From NCBI RefSeq assembly GCF_013167455.1, contig NZ_CP038328.1: a stretch of DNA of 64,000 bases; one strand, given 5' to 3'. Each line of letters begins with the position of its first letter. Positions within the stretch are counted from its first letter, which is position 1. Under the pieces are notes generated by a model. It was given only the letters and a program-made list of their open reading frames with translations. It ran no database searches and had not been told where the DNA came from. Made by a program: the position numbers and the translations under genes. Of this stretch, positions 2 to 15,795 are shown piece after piece. The DNA comes from Escherichia coli O157:H7. Its GTDB lineage: Bacteria > Pseudomonadota > Gammaproteobacteria > Enterobacterales > Enterobacteriaceae.

Positions 2-214
2 CAATTTACCGCAAACGTAACCGAAGGCCGTAACAGTGGGATGACGAAAAGAGAATATTATCAGCGACTTGATAACATGAACGGTAAGGCCGACGTCACC
101 CAGCAGATGATAACGCTCTATAAGACTTTTGTTGACTACGTATATGAACATCCAAAGCAAGACGCAAAGATTTCAGGGACGTATATTTATACTAACTGTA
201 TGAACAACTTCTAG
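2..214 (+). CDS. Hypothetical protein, C-terminal ~70 codons only (5' end lies outside the window)
   Basis: Stop-free reading frame from the window edge to TAG at 212-214, same strand and 151 bp upstream of the 366..1682 gene; no recognisable family from the fragment. Confidence 0.35.
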   Translation, partial: QFTANVTEGRNSGMTKREYYQRLDNMNGKADVTQQMITLYKTFVDYVYEHPKQDAKISGTYIYTNCMNNF

Positions 215-365
215 AAACGTAGGTGCCTGAACATGATAGAACTCAGCTGCCAGCATAGAGTGGAAAGCGGAGGCTTACCATCGTATATTCATCGCGTTAT
301 CTTTCCGTAACTATAATCTGTCTCAGTTGATCTAGTGCCTTTCAGGGCTGAACTAAGGAATAAAG

Positions 366-1682
366 ATGAATGACGGTGTTATGCTAGATTCTGACGTTAT
401 TGCTGGTCTTGAGTGGTTAGCATCAACTCAAGAGAACAAACAACACTTTTACCAGCGCTTAGCAAAAGCACAGCAATTTTACATAGCTACAACCCAAAAA
501 GCTGCCAATTTCGGGAAACAGTTTGACCCAGAATGGTATGGTTCCGACGTGGTTGCTGGTTATTTCGCACAAGCAAAATCGCTTATCGATAATAGAAGGT
601 CTTACGAAGTTACTAATGCTTCAAATATAATACCATGGGTTAAACAATTAGGAGTGTGTGCTAAATCGCTCGATAGAATTACTGGCGCTAGAGATCGCGC
701 AATCAGAATGCTTAAGAATACAACAGTATTACCAGACACAGCCTTATTAGAGTTGGTTCTTGCTGGAAACTATGCATCAGAAGGTTATGAAGTTGAGTTC
801 ATTCCAGAACAAAAAGGGATAGCAAAAACCCCGGAGTTTCGTTGCCGCCTTGGAGATGGCGATTATTTCTTTGTCGAATGCAAAAGGCTTCAGAAAGGTC
901 CTTACGTAAAGCAGGAAATATTACAGCATCATATACGCTCACATCTTGCCGAACTTCATATCAAATCCAAAAAGATGAACGTATGGACTGATGTCACATA
1001 TTTATGTGAAGTTAAAGACGCGCCTGAAAACTATATCATTAGCCACTTAAAAAACTTTAAAGGTGTATTTTATGAATGGAATGATGATTATGGAAAAGGA
1101 ACGATTAGACCGGCCAACTTAAATCTTATCAGGGAAGATATCACTGAAAACGGCTCATTACTAGTCAACACTAAACTTGCTCGTCTTATCAAAGGCTCCC
1201 CTCTGGAAGATGAAAATTACCAAGTTGTTGCTATGGGACGACCAGATGAGCGCGACTCACGTTTCATAACCAAAGTTAAACTTGCTTCTTTGATAACATG
1301 GCGTTGTATCAATGAAAAATCTTTCGATGCACGTTCGCGACATGTAACAAAAACATTAGCAGAGATAGATAACCAGCTTTTGGATTATGGTCTAGGCGTA
1401 GGGCATATAGCTTTGGATGTAGATATTCAAAAGGATGTTGCCGATAAACGAAGGGAAAAAAACTATGCTGCCATAGTAAATTTTGAGCAAAAATCTAAAA
1501 TAGTCCGCCTGAATGTTCATTATCTCGTGCCACGCATAGATGAGAACTCTGCGTGGATGGTAGATGAAACTGCGGATGACTTTTTTACCCATGATCTGGT
1601 CAAATATGTTATCCCATTGACTAAAATATTCCCCGAGGCTGAGGTATTTGAGAATGACCAACCTGGCTGGCATCAAAATTAA
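366..1682 (+). CDS. Hypothetical 438-aa protein; possible PD-(D/E)xK-like nuclease motif (E142/E144 ... D164/D166 ... E171-x-K173)
   Basis: Long ORF with ATG at 366 preceded by AAGGAA RBS-like sequence; motif GYEVEF...GDGDYFFVECK read directly from the translation; family assignment not possible without HMM search. Confidence 0.6.
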   Translation: MNDGVMLDSDVIAGLEWLASTQENKQHFYQRLAKAQQFYIATTQKAANFGKQFDPEWYGSDVVAGYFAQAKSLIDNRRSYEVTNASNIIPWVKQLGVCAKSLDRITGARDRAIRMLKNTTVLPDTALLELVLAGNYASEGYEVEFIPEQKGIAKTPEFRCRLGDGDYFFVECKRLQKGPYVKQEILQHHIRSHLAELHIKSKKMNVWTDVTYLCEVKDAPENYIISHLKNFKGVFYEWNDDYGKGTIRPANLNLIREDITENGSLLVNTKLARLIKGSPLEDENYQVVAMGRPDERDSRFITKVKLASLITWRCINEKSFDARSRHVTKTLAEIDNQLLDYGLGVGHIALDVDIQKDVADKRREKNYAAIVNFEQKSKIVRLNVHYLVPRIDENSAWMVDETADDFFTHDLVKYVIPLTKIFPEAEVFENDQPGWHQN

Positions 1683-1880
1683 TTTATTTTTGATAGTATG
1701 AACGAGGGTAGCATTTCTATACAAATCAGTGTTCGGCTGATAGCGAGTTAAACAGTTTACTGAAATGTTCTCAGCAATTAGCTGTTGCCAGGACCTCAAA
1801 AATCCGATTCTGGCGGAAAGTGTGCTGTTTTACCAAGTATTGCTCGTATCTGCAAAGTGTTAGAGCATGTTTTAAGTATA

Positions 1881-2450
1881 TCAGTAACCCTTATTCAGTA
1901 ATGCAGCAAGCGTCGCTCTTGAAACACCGTATTCACGCGCCAATGCGCTAACACTAACCCCAGCGGCCCTTTTGTCTAAAATCGCTCCACGAGCTTCCGG
2001 TGCGATTTTAGCAGGCCTGCCCAATTTCCTGCCTTCAGCTTTTGCCCGTAACAGCCCCGCATTAGTCCGTTCAATCAGCAGGTCACGCTCCATCTCCGCA
2101 ACCGCTGCTAGCATCGACAACAGGAGCTTACCGGCAGCAGAGGTGAGATCAGTGGTGCCAAGCTGATGGACAATAACCTTGATGTTTCGGTCAGCCAACG
2201 TCCTGACAGTTTGCAGAACGTCAATTGCATCACGCCCGAGGCGGTCCAGCTTTGCAACTACCAACGTTTCCCCATCGCGGATTTTGCTGAGCATTTCAAA
2301 AAACGCTTTGCGTTGCACCGCAGGAACCTTTCCGCTGACTACATCAGAAAACCAAAAGTCGAACGTCCACCCAGCTTGTTCAAGTTCCATGCGCTGGTTC
2401 TCAGTATCCTGCTGGGATGTCGAAACACGCCCGTAGCCAAAAATAGCCAT
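1881..2450 (-). CDS. Serine recombinase (resolvase/invertase family)
   Basis: N-terminus MAIFGYGRVSTSQQ contains the catalytic-serine motif typical of resolvase/invertase enzymes; C-terminal helix-turn-helix-like region; GGAGA RBS 6 nt upstream of the chosen ATG (ORF track extends 23 codons further upstream). Confidence 0.8.
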   Translation of the reverse strand: MAIFGYGRVSTSQQDTENQRMELEQAGWTFDFWFSDVVSGKVPAVQRKAFFEMLSKIRDGETLVVAKLDRLGRDAIDVLQTVRTLADRNIKVIVHQLGTTDLTSAAGKLLLSMLAAVAEMERDLLIERTNAGLLRAKAEGRKLGRPAKIAPEARGAILDKRAAGVSVSALAREYGVSRATLAALLNKGY

Positions 2451-2642
2451 AGTCATCTCCTCATCCGGCCCCTGCCAGAAAACGGTGATGAAAATAGGAT
2501 GGCCTGCCGGAAAAGCCAAGGCTAATTTTCCAACAGTGTGAAAGCGTGCGGTTGGAGGATGCCGGAAAACGGTCGTTTGTTGGCGCTTAAAACGGGTGAA
2601 GACATGTTAGGCTGAAACCATCACTTCATAAGGACAACCGAA

Positions 2643-3110
2643 ATGATTAAAGACGCGATTTTTTCACCGTGCGGTAAGTATCGCTACTCGTTATCACGAG
2701 TCTGGGACGAATCAAAACCGTATACCCTTTTCATAGGGCTAAACCCTTCATACGCCGATGCCGAGAAGGATGATCGCACCTTGAGCCGCTGCATATCGTT
2801 TGCCAAAAGCTGGGGCTACGGTGGCGTATACATGGCCAACCTGTTCGCATTCGTTCACACCCAGCGACATGAAATGATGAAAGCGTCTGATCCCATTGGC
2901 AAAGATAACGATAGCCACTTGATACGTCTTGTTAGCGGTGCCGGACTGGTTGTCGCCGCATGGGGAAATGAAGGAAGACACCTCAAACGCTCAACGACCG
3001 TCCGACAGCTATTGCCAGAGAGCACAATGTGCTTCGTCTTAAACGCTACAGGTGAGCCGAAGCACCCTTTGTATATGAAAAACGACAGTGTTCTCATACC
3101 TTTAGGTTAA
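2643..3110 (+). CDS. DUF1643-family protein (155 aa), function unknown
   Basis: Translation (FSPCGKYRYSL...FIGLNPSYAD...) resembles DUF1643 proteins; AGGA RBS before ATG; followed by a 9-bp stem hairpin at 3120-3143. Confidence 0.65.
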   Translation: MIKDAIFSPCGKYRYSLSRVWDESKPYTLFIGLNPSYADAEKDDRTLSRCISFAKSWGYGGVYMANLFAFVHTQRHEMMKASDPIGKDNDSHLIRLVSGAGLVVAAWGNEGRHLKRSTTVRQLLPESTMCFVLNATGEPKHPLYMKNDSVLIPLG

Positions 3111-4113
3111 CATCGATAACTGCGTTCAGAATATGAACGCAGCCATATGATATATATGACTTTTCTTTAAAATGATGGTGTGCTAGCTTCTCTCCTGACA
3201 CCTACCTCATGCGGTAAACCGGTCCGGGTAGGTGGAGATCACCGCTGTTTAGCGGAAGACGTCAGGATGGGAACTCTGCGTAACGTTGATTGTGGTAGGT
3301 AGGGCGCGCAAGCGTTTGATGCAGCCAAGCAGAGGGTGAAAGTAGCTATCGGCGGATTCTTAAGTAGCTTCTTTTGCGCATAATGCATCTTTCAAGAAAG
3401 GTCGTCACACCACGAGGAAGACTTGATCTTCATCTGGCAAGGGGAACCGAGCAAACCTACAGGCTATCTTCTCAGATGGCCTTAGGGTTGATATGTCCGG
3501 CTTCCCCCCCGAGGAAGGGTTTACATCTTAAAGAACAAGTTATGTTTTAACATTTTTAACAATTACACTTCTCTGCTGTTTGGTGTCTTATGGCGTTCCC
3601 GTCAAAAGTAAAGCTGCCGTTTTTACCTCACATGCGTAACAACCAAACACGAACCAGAAGCTGCTAACGTTCAACGTGTTCGCGGTGTAAATGCAGCCGG
3701 ATAAGTTGGGAGCGAAAAAGTGGATGTCCTAGGTTTGGAAGCGCCCCTCTTAAGCATTGCATCCGATAATTTCCGTGGCGGTGAGACAGTCCTTATAGAG
3801 GCAATCAGCCTCCAAAGTTAAGCGACGCGGTAAAACTAAAGCTCGCCCAGATTTCTCATTGATTGCTCGAACTCCGCTACGCTTGTTTCAACTGGCTTCA
3901 CCAGTCACTCTATGAGAGCGCCGCGAATTCTGCACCATGATTTCGACTACCTTCTTTAAAACACTCGCCAGAGAGCCTTACAGCGCGTTTGAACCGCATA
4001 TCGCAGCTTCTGCTTACGGATGACTGTCTGATTAGCAGTAGCTTCATGGCCCAGTCCGGTTTACTTTATTGCTATCAACTAGGAGCCGCCCAAGGGCAAC
4101 ACGGAGATAACGC

Positions 4114-4446
4114 TTGAGAACCGTCGAAATACTGCAATACACCTTACGCAAAGGCAGCGGTGCCGCTTTTCACGCCATAATGCAGGAAATCAGTGTTCCC
4201 CTACACCAAAGCCACGGGATCGATGTTGTTTCGTTTGGCAACTCGCTTGATGACCTGGATTGCTACTACTTGATTCGCGCCTTTGACAGCGCTAAAAGCA
4301 TGACTGCGGTTCTCGATGCTTTTTACGCAAGCGCAGACTGGCGCAGCGGCCCACGCGAAGACATCATTGGCAGCATAGAGAACTGCATTAAAACAGTGAT
4401 TAGCCTACCATCAGAAAGCGTGAAAGGGCTGCGGATGCAATCGTAA
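4114..4446 (+). CDS. NIPSNAP-like small protein (110 aa), TTG start
   Basis: ORF bounded by an in-frame TAA at 4108-4110; GGAG 9 nt upstream of TTG; sequence resembles NIPSNAP/Dabb-like small proteins. Confidence 0.45.
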   Translation: MRTVEILQYTLRKGSGAAFHAIMQEISVPLHQSHGIDVVSFGNSLDDLDCYYLIRAFDSAKSMTAVLDAFYASADWRSGPREDIIGSIENCIKTVISLPSESVKGLRMQS

Positions 4447-4945: not shown

Positions 4946-5127
4946 CTAACTAAATAATTTTCCCCTAAAAAAATTCGATGTAGGAAAATATATATAAGTA
5001 AGAATCATGAGTGTCCGCTCCTCGCTCAAGGCGGACTGTTAGACTTGATTGTATGCTGTCAGAGAAAACCGTCAGATCAATTCTGTGAACCGCCCCGGGT
5101 TTCCTGGAGAGTGTTTTATCTGTGAAC

Positions 5128-6018
5128 TCAGGCTGCCAGATCATCGTTTCCGATGGAAGCATAATAAGCTTTTTCTGCTTCTGCCGGAGGAGTATGGCCC
5201 AGCCTTCCCAGCAATCGTCGATTGTTATACCAGTCCACCCACGTTAGTGTGGCCAGTTCCACTTCTGCACGGTTTTTCCAGCTCTTACGGTGTATTACCT
5301 CCGCTTTGTAAAGACCATTGATGCTCTCAGCCATCGCGTTGTCATACGAGTCGCCTGTACTCCCTGTTGATGCCAGTAATCCGGCTTCTTTTAGTCGCTC
5401 CGTATAGGCCAGTGACACATACTGAGAGCCTTTATCGCTGTGATGGATGGTGCCAGACGGACGACGGGCCCACAACGCCTGCTCCAGCGCATCCAGCACG
5501 AATGTCGTTTCCATAGACGATGAGACCCGCCACCCCACGATGTATCCGGCAAACACATCAATGATAAACGCCACATAGACGAAGCCCTGCCATGTGCTGA
5601 CGTAAGTAAAATCAGCCACCCACAGCTGGTCAGGTCGTTCTGCCACGAACTGACGGTTTACGCGGTCGCCTGCGGCAACGGCTTTCCGGCTGATGGTCGT
5701 ACGGACCTTTTTACCCCGGAGAACACCGGCAAGTCCCATAACCGCCATGAGACGTGCCACTGTACATCTGGCCACCCTGATTCCTTCCCGTAACAACTGA
5801 CGCCAGACTTTACGCACACCGTACACCTGATGATTTTCATCGTATACGCGCTGTATCTCTCTCTTCAGCCAGTCGTCGTGCTGCGCACGGGCACTGCGTT
5901 TATCCGGATGATGTCGCTGTTGCTGACAATGGTAATACGTTGACGGGGCAATATGCAGTTCGCTGCATACCGGTCCGACCCCGTACTGCTCACGCAGCTT
6001 ATCCAGCAGTGGCATCAT
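5128..6018 (-). CDS. IS3-family transposase OrfB (integrase/DDE catalytic domain)
   Basis: 296-aa ORF with DDE-transposase features (..WVADFTYV.. / ..HSDKGSQY.. / ..DNAMAES..), overlapping OrfA in the -1 frame. Confidence 0.85.
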
Positions 6019-6341
6019 TTTTTCCAGAGGCGGTCGAACTCCGCCTTCGCAAAATAAGCGGAAGCCTGGCGAAGGATATCGTTACTGCGGCGCAGTTCAC
6101 GATTTTCACGTTCCAGCTCTTTCAGACGCTGACGTTCAGCGCTGGTGAGCCCACCATCACCGCCCCCGGTATCCCGCTCATGCTGGCGAACCCAGACACG
6201 CAGAGTCTCCGGCGTACAGCCAATCTTTGGGGCAATGGAACAAATTGCCGCCCACTGTGAGTCATATTCATCCTGACTTTCCAGAACCATACGAATCGCC
6301 CGCTGACGGACTTCGGGGGAAAAACGAGTATTTTTAGTCAT
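6015..6341 (-). CDS. IS3-family transposase OrfA (HTH / leucine-zipper part)
   Basis: 108-aa [22 protein letters not shown]... ending in the A-rich slippery region CTGGAAAAAATGA that overlaps the OrfB start. Confidence 0.85.
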
Positions 6342-6392
6342 CCTGTTTACCTCTTTCTCAGGGAGTTTAGTCTCCAGGATTTCCGGGGCGGT

Positions 6393-8366
6393 TCACTTTC
6401 TTCGCAGCGCATCTCTTACAGCATCCAGCCCATCAGGAATGTTGAATCTCGCTATCTCGGGCAAAGAAAAATCAATCTTTTCGACAACCTCAACCATGTG
6501 AACCGGTTTTAAATCTTTGCTGTATCGCACTTCAGTTTCTGTTTTGCCTCGCACATGCCCAAGTAGCTGCCCACGCAGTTCCGAACTAACACCCTTCTCT
6601 TTAAGCAAAGTTGAAACAGAATGCCGGAAAGAGTGGAAAGATTTGCTTCTGTCTCTTTCAAGTTTTAATCGACCCGCAAGCAATGATTCATTGAACCATG
6701 CGGAAACCGGCCTACCATAGCCTTTGGTTTTATGTGGTTTAAGCTCGGGAAAAAGACGGTCATACCCGGCAGCTTTCAACGCATCCACATACTCGATAAA
6801 ACCGAGTTCAATCAGCGTAGAATGAACCGGAATCTTGCGGCGGGAATTGGCGTTTTTTAGTTTCTTTCCGTTTTCGCTATCGCTTTCAAGGTTCAGGTAA
6901 TAAACGCCGTCATCTGCCAGAACATCGTCCAGCATTAACTGTGCAATCTCGTTAACCCTTGCCCCCGTCATCAAGCCCAACAACGGCGCCCAATAGTGAA
7001 ACGGGCAATATTGATGGAATCGCCCTTGCGCATTACGTTCAACAGTTCCAGCGACAAACCACGGTTGCGAAAAAATTGCCTTAATTTCATGCGGTTCAAA
7101 TATGTCAGTGTGATCCTGCTCTCGCTCACCTTTGTCATCGGGAGGGAAAAAGTTGTCGCATGGCGATTTCAGAAACTTACCATCATCAACAGCCCACTCC
7201 ATTGCACCATAAAGGCCGTTGATATACTTTTTGACAGACTCTTCTGTCATCAGTTTATCGCCACATTCTGCCGCTTTGGCGATTAACTCATCCAGCGTCT
7301 TAACCCCGTGCTTACCTTTCATCAAATTACGGTTAGCAGGAATTGTGCGCAACTTGCTCTCATAAGCCCGGAGGAAATCACGGTCGAAATCTTCCAACTG
7401 AATATCCCCCATCACTTCAATCATCAAATCGAAGTAATAGCGAATATCGCGGAGCGCCGCTTCTGATACCTTGCCCTTACGTCGATGTTTCAAATACTCT
7501 TCACGAAGCCATGACAAGTTTTCATTGTAATGTTTGCGGTGAACATATTCATTAGCGATAACAGGAGCGACAAGAGGCACGGCAGGGTGAATGCTAACTG
7601 CTGGTGGCGTGGTCTTAACCAGCCATGTAAGTCGAAGGCCTTCAGCATGAACTTTGCTAATCAACAGGCTATCAGCAGTTATATCTACGCCGGGTAAATC
7701 GAAGAACCAACCTCCACTTTGGTTATCACCACTAGTTCGAAATGCAGCCTCTCCTTCGGATACTCCAGCGCTCAACAGACAATCTAAAGTATGCCGGGGA
7801 TTGAAGGGGCGGAGATAACCATTTGCGAAGCTCTCGATACCCAGCTCAAACGCGCTATTGAGAATGATGACTTCTTTAGGTTGATCCTTTTCATCATCAG
7901 ACTGTTTTTCTCGTTTTGCACCCGGTTCCCGCTCTACTGCATTAAATTCATCAACATAGAAACCGAACTGACCAGTCGCCAGCCAGAATACCGGGAGGTT
8001 ACGATTAACCACCTCTCGAATCAATTGCGATATAGGCAACTCGATTGATTGAGCAAAGTTAGAAAGCGAGATCATACCCTCACCAGCAAGCAGTGGGGCG
8101 CAGTCACTTAAAGTTCGATAATCCAATTGTTCATACTCTTGTAAGGTCTGATACCAGACCGCCAACAGGAGCGCGGACTTCTGCTTTGCTTCATGAAGAT
8201 CGTGAGTGCCTGTTGAAGTGTGAATCTCACACTGTCCTGCGTATCGACGAAAACGTTGGGGAACGCTAATGCGGACAACATAAATGCCGCTGGTTCGACG
8301 ATAGAGTTTATATCGCTGAGACATCGCCTCGTATACCCTTTTGTAAGAGGGGCTACGCGATTTCAA
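6393..8366 (-). CDS. Tyrosine-type site-specific integrase (657 aa) of the leuX island
   Basis: C-terminal catalytic signature (R...HSFRHS...HVRGKTETEVRY); same strand as and immediately 3' of tRNA-Leu; stop codon coincides with the last 3 bp of the IS element. Confidence 0.85.
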   Translation of the reverse strand: MKSRSPSYKRVYEAMSQRYKLYRRTSGIYVVRISVPQRFRRYAGQCEIHTSTGTHDLHEAKQKSALLLAVWYQTLQEYEQLDYRTLSDCAPLLAGEGMISLSNFAQSIELPISQLIREVVNRNLPVFWLATGQFGFYVDEFNAVEREPGAKREKQSDDEKDQPKEVIILNSAFELGIESFANGYLRPFNPRHTLDCLLSAGVSEGEAAFRTSGDNQSGGWFFDLPGVDITADSLLISKVHAEGLRLTWLVKTTPPAVSIHPAVPLVAPVIANEYVHRKHYNENLSWLREEYLKHRRKGKVSEAALRDIRYYFDLMIEVMGDIQLEDFDRDFLRAYESKLRTIPANRNLMKGKHGVKTLDELIAKAAECGDKLMTEESVKKYINGLYGAMEWAVDDGKFLKSPCDNFFPPDDKGEREQDHTDIFEPHEIKAIFSQPWFVAGTVERNAQGRFHQYCPFHYWAPLLGLMTGARVNEIAQLMLDDVLADDGVYYLNLESDSENGKKLKNANSRRKIPVHSTLIELGFIEYVDALKAAGYDRLFPELKPHKTKGYGRPVSAWFNESLLAGRLKLERDRSKSFHSFRHSVSTLLKEKGVSSELRGQLLGHVRGKTETEVRYSKDLKPVHMVEVVEKIDFSLPEIARFNIPDGLDAVRDALRRK

Positions 8367-8414: not shown

Positions 8415-8499
8415 TGGTGCCGAAGGCCGGACTCGAACCGGCACGTATTTCTACGGTTGATTTTGAATCAACTGCGTCTACCGATTTCGCCACTTCGGC
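8415..8499 (-). tRNA. leuX: tRNA-Leu (anticodon CAA)
   Basis: Reverse complement reads GCCGAAGTGGCGAAATCGGTAGACGCAGTTGATTCAAAATCAACC...GGTTCGAGTCCGGCCTTCGGCACCA: cloverleaf-compatible, CAA anticodon loop, CCA end. Confidence 0.9.

Positions 8500-15469: not shown

Positions 15470-15795
<326 letters not shown>

Follow-up and report, generated by a model that had tools for sequence, protein, structure and literature searches.

A 166-bp deletion abutting IS629 clips the SpLE5 integrase gene in a sublineage of Escherichia coli O157:H7

The integrase gene of the leuX island of Escherichia coli O157:H7 ends, in the strain studied here, inside an insertion sequence. The analysed stretch of 64,000 nucleotides (the window; contig NZ_CP038328.1) includes the end of the integrative element SpLE5 (OI-172) that lies next to leuX; there, the integrase stop codon TGA at 6395..6393 on the minus strand is formed by the last 3 bp of a complete IS629. 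Comparison with related genomes shows that the element entered a CTG triplet outside the integrase gene and that a later 166-bp deletion, which starts at one end of the IS, clipped the integrase; the deletion was probably produced by IS629 itself. The window strain belongs to the FRIK1989 sublineage of LSPA-6 lineage I/II.

Structure of the locus

The features of the locus are collected in Table 1. Beyond leuX lies the core chromosome (ahr, yjgR, lptGF and onward). The integrase frame has an alternative TTG start at 8366.

Table 1. Features at the leuX-proximal end of SpLE5 in the window
Feature	Position	Strand	Remarks
Surviving copy of the target-site duplication, CTG	5083..5085		Comparison with Sakai and the empty site
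IS629 (=IS1203, IS3 family), complete, 1310 bp	5086..6395	-	Identity to the Sakai copy
IRR, orfB-distal terminal inverted repeat	5086..5111		TGAACCGCCCCGGGTTTCCTGGAGAG
IS629 orfB, 296 aa, HTH_21 and rve DDE core	5128..6018	-	Open frame, Pfam
ALIL pseudoknot (RF01497)	5944..6060	-	Full-length match, 121.5 bits against a gathering score of 50
IS629 orfA, 108 aa, HTH_Tnp_1	6015..6341	-	Open frame, Pfam
IRL, orfA-proximal terminal inverted repeat	6370..6395		Last 3 bp TCA (TGA on the minus strand) form the integrase stop codon
Deletion junction	6395..6396		166 bp of Sakai (L001 8797..8962) gone between these bases; boundary ambiguous by 2 bp (CT)
SpLE5 tyrosine-recombinase integrase, clipped allele, 643 aa (native 649 aa)	6393..8324	-	WP_001694485.1
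tRNA-Leu(CAA) leuX, island integration site	8415..8499	-	

The element starts at 5086 with TGAACCGCCCCGGG... and ends at 6395 with ...CCGGGGCGGTTCA. Its full length is 100% identical to the annotated copy in SpLE5 of Sakai and to IS629/IS1203 copies in many other E. coli genomes. The initial annotation had described a 1310-bp IS629-like element with matching inverted repeats and two intact reading frames, and this identity bears the description out. The repeat arms are imperfect: they were detected at 5085-5110 and 6371-6396, are 88% complementary and carry the ends TGAACC...GGTTCA. By chance, the left-end 26-mer is expected 0.00 times in the window. Because the transposase genes are on the minus strand and IRL is defined as the repeat upstream of orfA, IRL is the repeat at 6395 and IRR the one at 5086.

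The orfB product is made as an OrfAB fusion protein through a -1 frameshift, which takes place on the A-run 6023..6018 ahead of the orfA stop codon. The programmed frameshift is annotated by PGAP in FRIK1989 for the identical IS629 sequence, and the ALIL pseudoknot which covers this region is known as a frameshift stimulator of IS3-family transposases (RF01497). Since the element is intact and identical to the consensus, it is plausibly active, in line with the earlier suggestion that it probably is. The copy itself is ordinary, and our findings leave the understanding of IS629 unchanged.

A target-site duplication of 3-4 bp is absent in the window. The flanking triplets are CTG (5083-5085) and CTT (6396-6398), a mismatch which had already been recorded in the initial annotation together with the stop codon provided by the right end of the IS; both readings are correct. 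The assignment to IS629 and the IS3 family is nevertheless safe, because the 166-bp deletion accounts for the loss of the duplication and the Sakai copy has CTG on both sides.

The ancestral site and the deletion

The ancestral arrangement can be reconstructed from two groups of genomes. Sakai, EDL933 and some 110 further complete genomes carry this IS629 copy downstream of the integrase gene, 145 bp from its stop codon, and a perfect 3-bp CTG duplication flanks it (ATTCTG[IS]CTGAGC in Sakai). In the genomes PV15-279 and CFSAN029787, which are free of IS629 at this position, the site is uninterrupted and reads ATCAATTCTGAGCTAATGC. The 166 bp missing from the window are present in this empty site and are thus ancestral. 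The site is known to be polymorphic and has been designated 'IS.23, SpLE5' (Rump et al. 2011, PMC3271280); in the same work, matching duplications were found at only 21 of the 47 IS629 sites of four O157 genomes. The window shares element, left junction, orientation and island with the Sakai IS.23 copy (ECs_5243/ECs_5244; PMC3271280). It differs in the right junction, where the 166 bp including the right CTG and the 3′ end of the integrase gene are absent.

The alignment of the window with Sakai shows 100% identity on either side of a single 166-bp gap which starts at the IS end. The IS terminus is exactly kept and abuts DNA which is located further away in the ancestral arrangement, as is characteristic of an IS-adjacent deletion. 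Lost with it were the right CTG copy and another 142 bases of intergenic DNA, then the stop codon of the integrase gene together with the six codons before it. A deletion of adjacent island DNA had been proposed in the initial annotation as one possibility. The deletion is confirmed, yet island cargo was not part of it: beyond the 21 bp taken from the integrase gene, only a short intergenic stretch is gone. This stretch included a predicted integrase terminator, a 13-pair hairpin followed by a T-run on the integrase strand (L001 8910..8881); in the window, no terminator-like site was found between the integrase stop codon and orfA.

The junction is rare. It was searched with a query whose IS part measured 20 bp, below the megablast word size, and which thereby separates deleted from undeleted genomes. 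A single one of 5,426 complete genomes carries it, FRIK1989, which is 3 SNPs away from the window; overall it was found on 22 contigs. The identical junction is present in two NCBI draft assemblies and several independent Logan assemblies. The clipped integrase is encoded on 22 contigs, whereas its full-length counterpart is encoded on at least 1000. Literature searches on SpLE5, ECs5242-5244 and FRIK1989 turned up no account of the 166-bp junction.

Consequences for the integrase

With its stop codon and the six terminal residues RGKQTG removed, the integrase is shortened from 649 to 643 amino acids. It ends in ...DALRRK and gains no foreign residues, the IS terminus opening with TGA on the integrase strand. 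The suspected loss of native C-terminal residues is therefore real and amounts to six, with none added.

The protein belongs with the tyrosine-recombinase integrases of tRNA-linked islands (PF00589 and N-terminal DUF6538), with which it shares the domains, the adjacency to leuX and the pattern R..H-x-x-R..H..Y; it differs from them in the absence of the six C-terminal residues and in a stop codon derived from an IS. The Pfam domain Phage_integrase PF00589 spans residues 449-595 and scores 36.8 bits in both alleles (gathering score 27.1). R456, H564, R567, H590 and Y601, which we take to be the catalytic residues according to the family pattern, are invariant in 24 homologues and are all upstream of the truncation at 643. 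Because these residues and all nearly invariant positions up to K643 are kept, the clipped integrase is probably still active.

The truncation may all the same affect its function, since none of the compared homologues stops at K643 and most of them conserve R644. Homologues from Enterobacter, Cronobacter, Yersinia and others carry a tail past ...RRK; natural C-termini read ...LIKR, ...RRKRD, ...RRKRC and ...RRKRG. This comparison answers positively the earlier question of whether the integrase is truncated. A profile search with the integrase against the PDB sequences found no solved relative, and in a low-confidence AlphaFold2 model (mean pLDDT 66, pTM 0.40) residues 630-648 form a terminal helix with a pLDDT of about 50-59.

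Sister alleles and rival explanations

Four variant alleles were found at this locus (156 bp, 166 bp, IS + 187 bp and about 11 kb), and all of them lose DNA on the integrase side. The 156-bp deletion, present in four complete genomes (08-3914 and three others), keeps an IS629 which is 100% identical, shares the left junction with the window, starts from exactly the same IS terminus and shows no microhomology. In 29 genomes, among them TW14359, EC4115, SS17 and SS52, the IS is lost together with 187 bp on the same side; here the left breakpoint is inside the CTG target and the microhomology is 1 nt. As two other alleles touch the IS end from which the window deletion starts, the locus is, on sequence comparison, a recurrent site of IS629-associated deletion. 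The three independent alleles with the IS insertion point as breakpoint lead us to infer that the deletion was transposase-dependent.

Another history would yield the same product. A second, co-oriented IS629 could have inserted at CTT in the 3′ end of the integrase gene, 166 bp away, and homologous recombination between the two copies would then have dropped one of them together with the intervening 166 bp. This route gives exactly the observed ATTCTG[IS]CTTTCTTCG, with an exact terminus and two different flanking triplets, so that the sequence alone looks the same for recombination and for direct adjacent deletion. IS3-family elements move by a copy-out-paste-in process which does not by itself delete donor flanks, and this favours the two-copy route, as does the repeated insertion of IS629 into the region: PV15-279 carries a separate copy 184 bp away with a clean 3-bp duplication. 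However, no two-copy intermediate was found among the complete genomes, in which this flank is joined to an IS629 end in FRIK1989 only. Given the 156-bp allele, the route would be needed twice, and it leaves the third allele, which has no IS at all, unexplained. We therefore regard recombination between two copies as unlikely, and direct deletion from the IS end as the preferred reading.

A deletion independent of the IS, by replication slippage or illegitimate recombination at the 2-bp CT repeat, would abut the element by coincidence. The CT microhomology at the breakpoints is compatible with such an event, but a match of two bases should arise by chance in about 6% of cases, and the 156-bp allele combines an exact IS terminus with no microhomology. 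By our estimate, a breakpoint in the ~ 330 bp intergenic region would coincide with the IS end by chance in roughly 1% of events; all three independent alleles break at the point where IS629 inserted, or no more than 1 nt from it. Coincidence is accordingly a very improbable explanation.

In the initial annotation the insertion was put at the very 3′ end of the integrase gene, and a duplication altered by mutation was considered. CTG and CTT are indeed one base apart, but the window shares its left junction with Sakai, whose right flank contains the 166 bp that are absent from the window and that the empty site proves ancestral; the flanks of the related islands, both Sakai-type and empty, thus differ from the window. 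The Sakai junctions and the empty site lead us to reject direct insertion with a mutated duplication, to which we assign hardly any probability: the target was the CTG 145 bp downstream, and the later deletion brought the IS end in. IS copies often break or confuse assemblies, yet an artefact at the repeat boundary is practically inconceivable for this junction: a closed genome has it, and so do the window, which comes from another strain 3 SNPs away, the NCBI drafts and Logan assemblies made independently.

A model of the deletion

The comparisons show the first two events. IS629 entered the CTG triplet that lies 145 bp beyond the integrase stop codon on the downstream side, and generated the 3-bp duplication. 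The sublineage of the window then lost 166 bp from the orfA-proximal IS terminus, so that the integrase frame now runs into the TGA of the IS. The deletion would be the work of IS629 itself, through transposase acting at the IS end either alone or with IEE (IS-excision enhancer), a process expected to leave the IS terminus exact while it takes out adjacent DNA. Finally, integrase activity was probably kept, and the loss of the terminator may let transcription enter the co-oriented transposase genes of IS629. Read-through from the integrase gene may thus occur, as judged from the missing predicted hairpin.

According to the literature, almost all O157 strains carry both IEE and IS629; the iee gene is on SpLE1, outside the window. 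Small deletions associated with IS629 and IEE-promoted excision and deletion have been described in O157 (Ooka et al. 2009 and Kusumoto et al. 2011, both cited through PMC9943667 and PMC8860574). As in these events, the window deletion starts at an IS629 end, and one of the sister alleles has lost the IS with flanking DNA, the pattern described for IEE-dependent events; the window, by contrast, keeps its IS fully. IEE-type events are marked by loss of the IS, with or without flanking DNA, and by short microhomology. With its IS kept and a junction ambiguity of only 2 bp, the window departs from this pattern, which fits the TW14359-type allele (IS + 187 bp lost, 1-nt microhomology). IEE possibly helped in the deletion.

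Another parallel is provided by the adjacent deletions of IS3 in the insertion-deletion-excision model, where DNA between the IR and a neighbouring gene is lost while the IS is preserved and comes to abut that gene, as in the window (Kanai et al. 2022, PMC8860574). That system (PMC8860574) is a plasmid with induced transposase, whereas the allele in the window is natural, lies on the chromosome and is passed on within a clade.

A further proposal, which we consider improbable, is that the IS629 end is a directional 'nibbling' site at which repeated deletions would step by step clip the integrase C-terminus and remove the terminator. If this were true, the island could become immobile, or integrase transcription could be coupled to IS629 transposase expression, linking the activities of island and IS in some O157 lineages.

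Significance

The junction is a new example of the well-known microevolution driven by IS elements, and a compact natural one of the way in which an IS3-family element reshapes the surrounding DNA once it has inserted. Within O157:H7 it is a lineage-specific marker in lineage I/II. The proteins WP_001694485.1, WP_000083141.1 and WP_000083140.1 are IS-clipped or IS-chimeric integrases which automatic annotation names plainly 'site-specific integrase'. Where TW14359 and EC4115 are 'IS-negative' at IS.23, they carry the scar of a deletion and not an empty site, a distinction which matters where the presence or absence of IS629 serves as a phylogenetic character.

Insertion of IS629 and loss of adjacent DNA

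In E. coli O157:H7, IS629 inserted at a CTG in the leuX-proximal end of SpLE5 (OI-172), an integrative element, and a later loss of 166 bp starting at the IS terminus clipped the SpLE5 tyrosine-recombinase integrase. The genes lie in the order DUF1643, NIPSNAP, DUF4160, IS629, integrase and tRNA-Leu(CAA) leuX, after which the core genes start (ahr, yjgR, lptG, lptF through cpdB). The element begins with TGAACCGCCCCGGG and ends with CCGGGGCGGTTCA; a repeat finder gives its terminal inverted repeats 88% complementarity, and its left-end 26-mer has 0.00 chance occurrences expected in the window. Over its entire length it is 100% identical to IS629/IS1203 copies of many E. coli genomes and to the Sakai SpLE5 copy, and it carries a full-length IS3-type ALIL frameshift pseudoknot (121.5 bits; gathering score 50). 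The initial annotation, with its 1310-bp element, overlapping TGA and unmatched CTG and CTT flanks, is accurate in every observed detail (see table).

Coordinates of the IS629 element, its junctions and related alleles
Feature	Position	Strand	Description
IS629 (= IS1203, IS3 family), complete	window 5086..6395	- (transposase genes)	1310 bp
orfA	window 6341->6015	-	108 aa, HTH_Tnp_1
orfB	window 6018->5128	-	296 aa; HTH_21, rve
Integrase stop	window 6395..6393	-	TGA, final three IS bases
Left bordering triplet	window 5083-5085		CTG
Right bordering triplet	window 6396-6398		CTT
DNA missing from window	Sakai L001 8797..8962		166 bp directly after IS end: right-hand CTG copy of target duplication; 142 more intergenic bases, incl. 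terminator-like hairpin; integrase stop codon; last six integrase codons
Allele b	L018 (08-3914) 2489-2520; L016 4877-4956		156-bp deletion vs Sakai; 4 complete genomes (08-3914, 06-3462, CEC13004, 93_161312)
Allele c	L019 (TW14359) 2500-2530; L014 4836-4915; Sakai L001 7486..8983		IS lost; 29 complete genomes (incl. TW14359, EC4115, SS17, SS52, JEONG-1266, TR01)
Allele d	L017 4560-5400		integrase (...GLDAVS) joined to zorE-adjacent DNA; one draft assembly (GCA_054591075.1)
PV15-279 IS629	L004 3344-4655		separate inverted copy

Comparison with Sakai gives a single gap with 100% identity on either side. The Sakai junctions (...ATCAATTCTG[IS629]CTGAGCTAATGC...) form a perfect 3-bp target duplication, and genomes without the IS at this site (PV15-279, which is O157:H7, and CFSAN029787, which is more distant) read ...ATCAATTCTGAGCTAATGC..., with CTG once. 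Together, these arrangements show that IS629 landed outside the gene, 145 bp beyond the integrase stop, and that the window deletion came later. The earlier proposals that adjacent island DNA had been deleted and that native C-terminal residues were missing are thus upheld, whereas the supposed insertion at the extreme 3′ end of the integrase gene is not.

The native protein ends in ...DALRRKRGKQTG (649 aa) and the window protein in ...DALRRK (643 aa), with the TGA of the IS itself as stop. One in three deletion endpoints would put the integrase in frame with this terminal TGA; read from the sequence, the remaining two frames meet stops within the IS after 8 or 15 codons. The deletion boundary has a 2-bp ambiguity (CT).

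Sister alleles at the same site

Other C-terminal variants in the integrase protein cluster were traced back to DNA. In allele b, the deletion begins at exactly the same IS terminus as in the window, microhomology is absent, and the IS and left junction are identical. Its integrase reads ...RRKRGK followed by LNRPGNPGD, nine residues translated from the IS629 inverted repeat; PGAP labels this chimeric protein (WP_000083141.1) an ordinary integrase. Allele c lacks IS629, a single base of the left CTG, and 187 bp towards the integrase; its integrase ends in ...GLDAV plus ELI. In allele d, integrase homology ends at Sakai L001 8982, at most 2 nt from the TW14359 breakpoint. The DNA joined there comes from beside zorE (type II Zorya), at a distance of about 10.8 kb in other O157, which implies that a large deletion removed the SpLE5 cargo. 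PV15-279 has its IS629 at the 3′ end of the DUF4160 gene, whose product is 121 aa there instead of 125 aa; this copy lies 184 bp to the left of the site used in the window and is flanked by a clean 3-bp duplication of its own. The int-proximal part of SpLE5 seems to attract IS629.

Origin of the deletion

IS629 itself probably made the 166-bp deletion, because its insertion point is the breakpoint in three independent alleles, and because the base-exact IS terminus in two of them is expected of transposase chemistry and not of random end-joining. Furthermore, IS3-family elements are reported to produce variable-length deletions beside their ends, some of them leaving the IS whole and arising without the IS-excision enhancer IEE (PMC8860574); as in the window, the IS end adjoins the deleted DNA and the IS is preserved. 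A direct adjacent deletion is the course we somewhat favour. A second co-oriented IS629 inserted at CTT, followed by recombination between both copies, would yield the same product and fits the sequence equally, but no such two-copy intermediate occurs among the complete genomes and we consider this route rather unlikely. A deletion independent of the IS is very improbable.

Distribution and strain setting

Among 5,426 complete E. coli genomes, 250 of which carry this integrase, the window junction occurs only in FRIK1989, and the Sakai arrangement in about 111 (116 after subtraction of one genome of the window type and of four that carry the 156-bp allele). In a large protein collection, the exact 643-aa integrase is found in 22 contigs and the full-length form in at least 1000. 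The identical junction is also present in independent draft and Logan assemblies. The 166-bp deletion is genuine and inherited, and limited to a small clade.

FRIK1989 (LSPA-6 lineage I/II, bovine origin) differs from the window by 3 SNPs over 63.4 kb, so that the window belongs to a near relative and not to FRIK1989 itself. The SNPs are G in the window for A at 1112, C for T at 5410 in orfB (presumably synonymous, since the protein accession is unchanged) and a third within 14001-64000. Elsewhere, about 1 kb of SpLE5 between DUF1643 and NIPSNAP (3110-4114) holds short ORFs only, carries no gene annotation in Sakai or FRIK1989, and gave no Rfam match at the gathering threshold. Between pepA and holC (15470-15768), a segment of about 200 bp matches itself at an offset of 96-98 bp (92.6% identity, window-versus-FRIK1989 BLAST); this tandem-like repeat possibly reflects REP/BIME-type intergenic repeats.

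Consequences for integrase and transcription

Both alleles give the same score for the Pfam integrase domain (residues 449-595), and the clipped protein keeps the invariant R456, H564, R567, H590 and Y601 and every nearly invariant position to K643. Natural homologues end variously in ...RRKRGKQTG, ...RRKRD, ...RRKRC, ...RRKRG or ...LIKR, so the final five residues are dispensable in nature; no homologue ending exactly at K643 was found, and R644 is mostly conserved. In a weak AlphaFold2 model (pLDDT 66, pTM 0.40), residues 630-648 form a terminal helix of low confidence. The 643-aa integrase is probably functional. The TW14359-type protein has lost 13 residues, nearly invariant ones among them, and is more likely to be impaired.

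The deleted hairpin (13 pairs and a T-run, on the integrase strand) is a predicted terminator, and no terminator-like site was found between the window integrase stop and orfA, which follows 51 nt downstream in the same orientation. For this reason integrase transcripts may, speculatively, read through into the transposase genes.

Relation to the IS.23 site

Small deletions tied to IS629 are well documented as a source of diversity in O157. At IS.23, the polymorphic IS629 site in SpLE5, published scoring has the element present in Sakai and EDL933 but missing from EC4115 and TW14359, and only 21 of 47 IS629 sites had matching duplications (PMC3271280). Our literature search found no description of this 166-bp junction or of the clipped-integrase allelic series at the site. 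The element, the polymorphic site and the kind of deletion are already known; this junction and the allele series appear to be new. The junction shows that what was scored 'absent' for TW14359 and EC4115 is a deletion scar rather than an empty site, and the published IS-negative call at IS.23 in allele c strains reflects that scar, not a vacant target.
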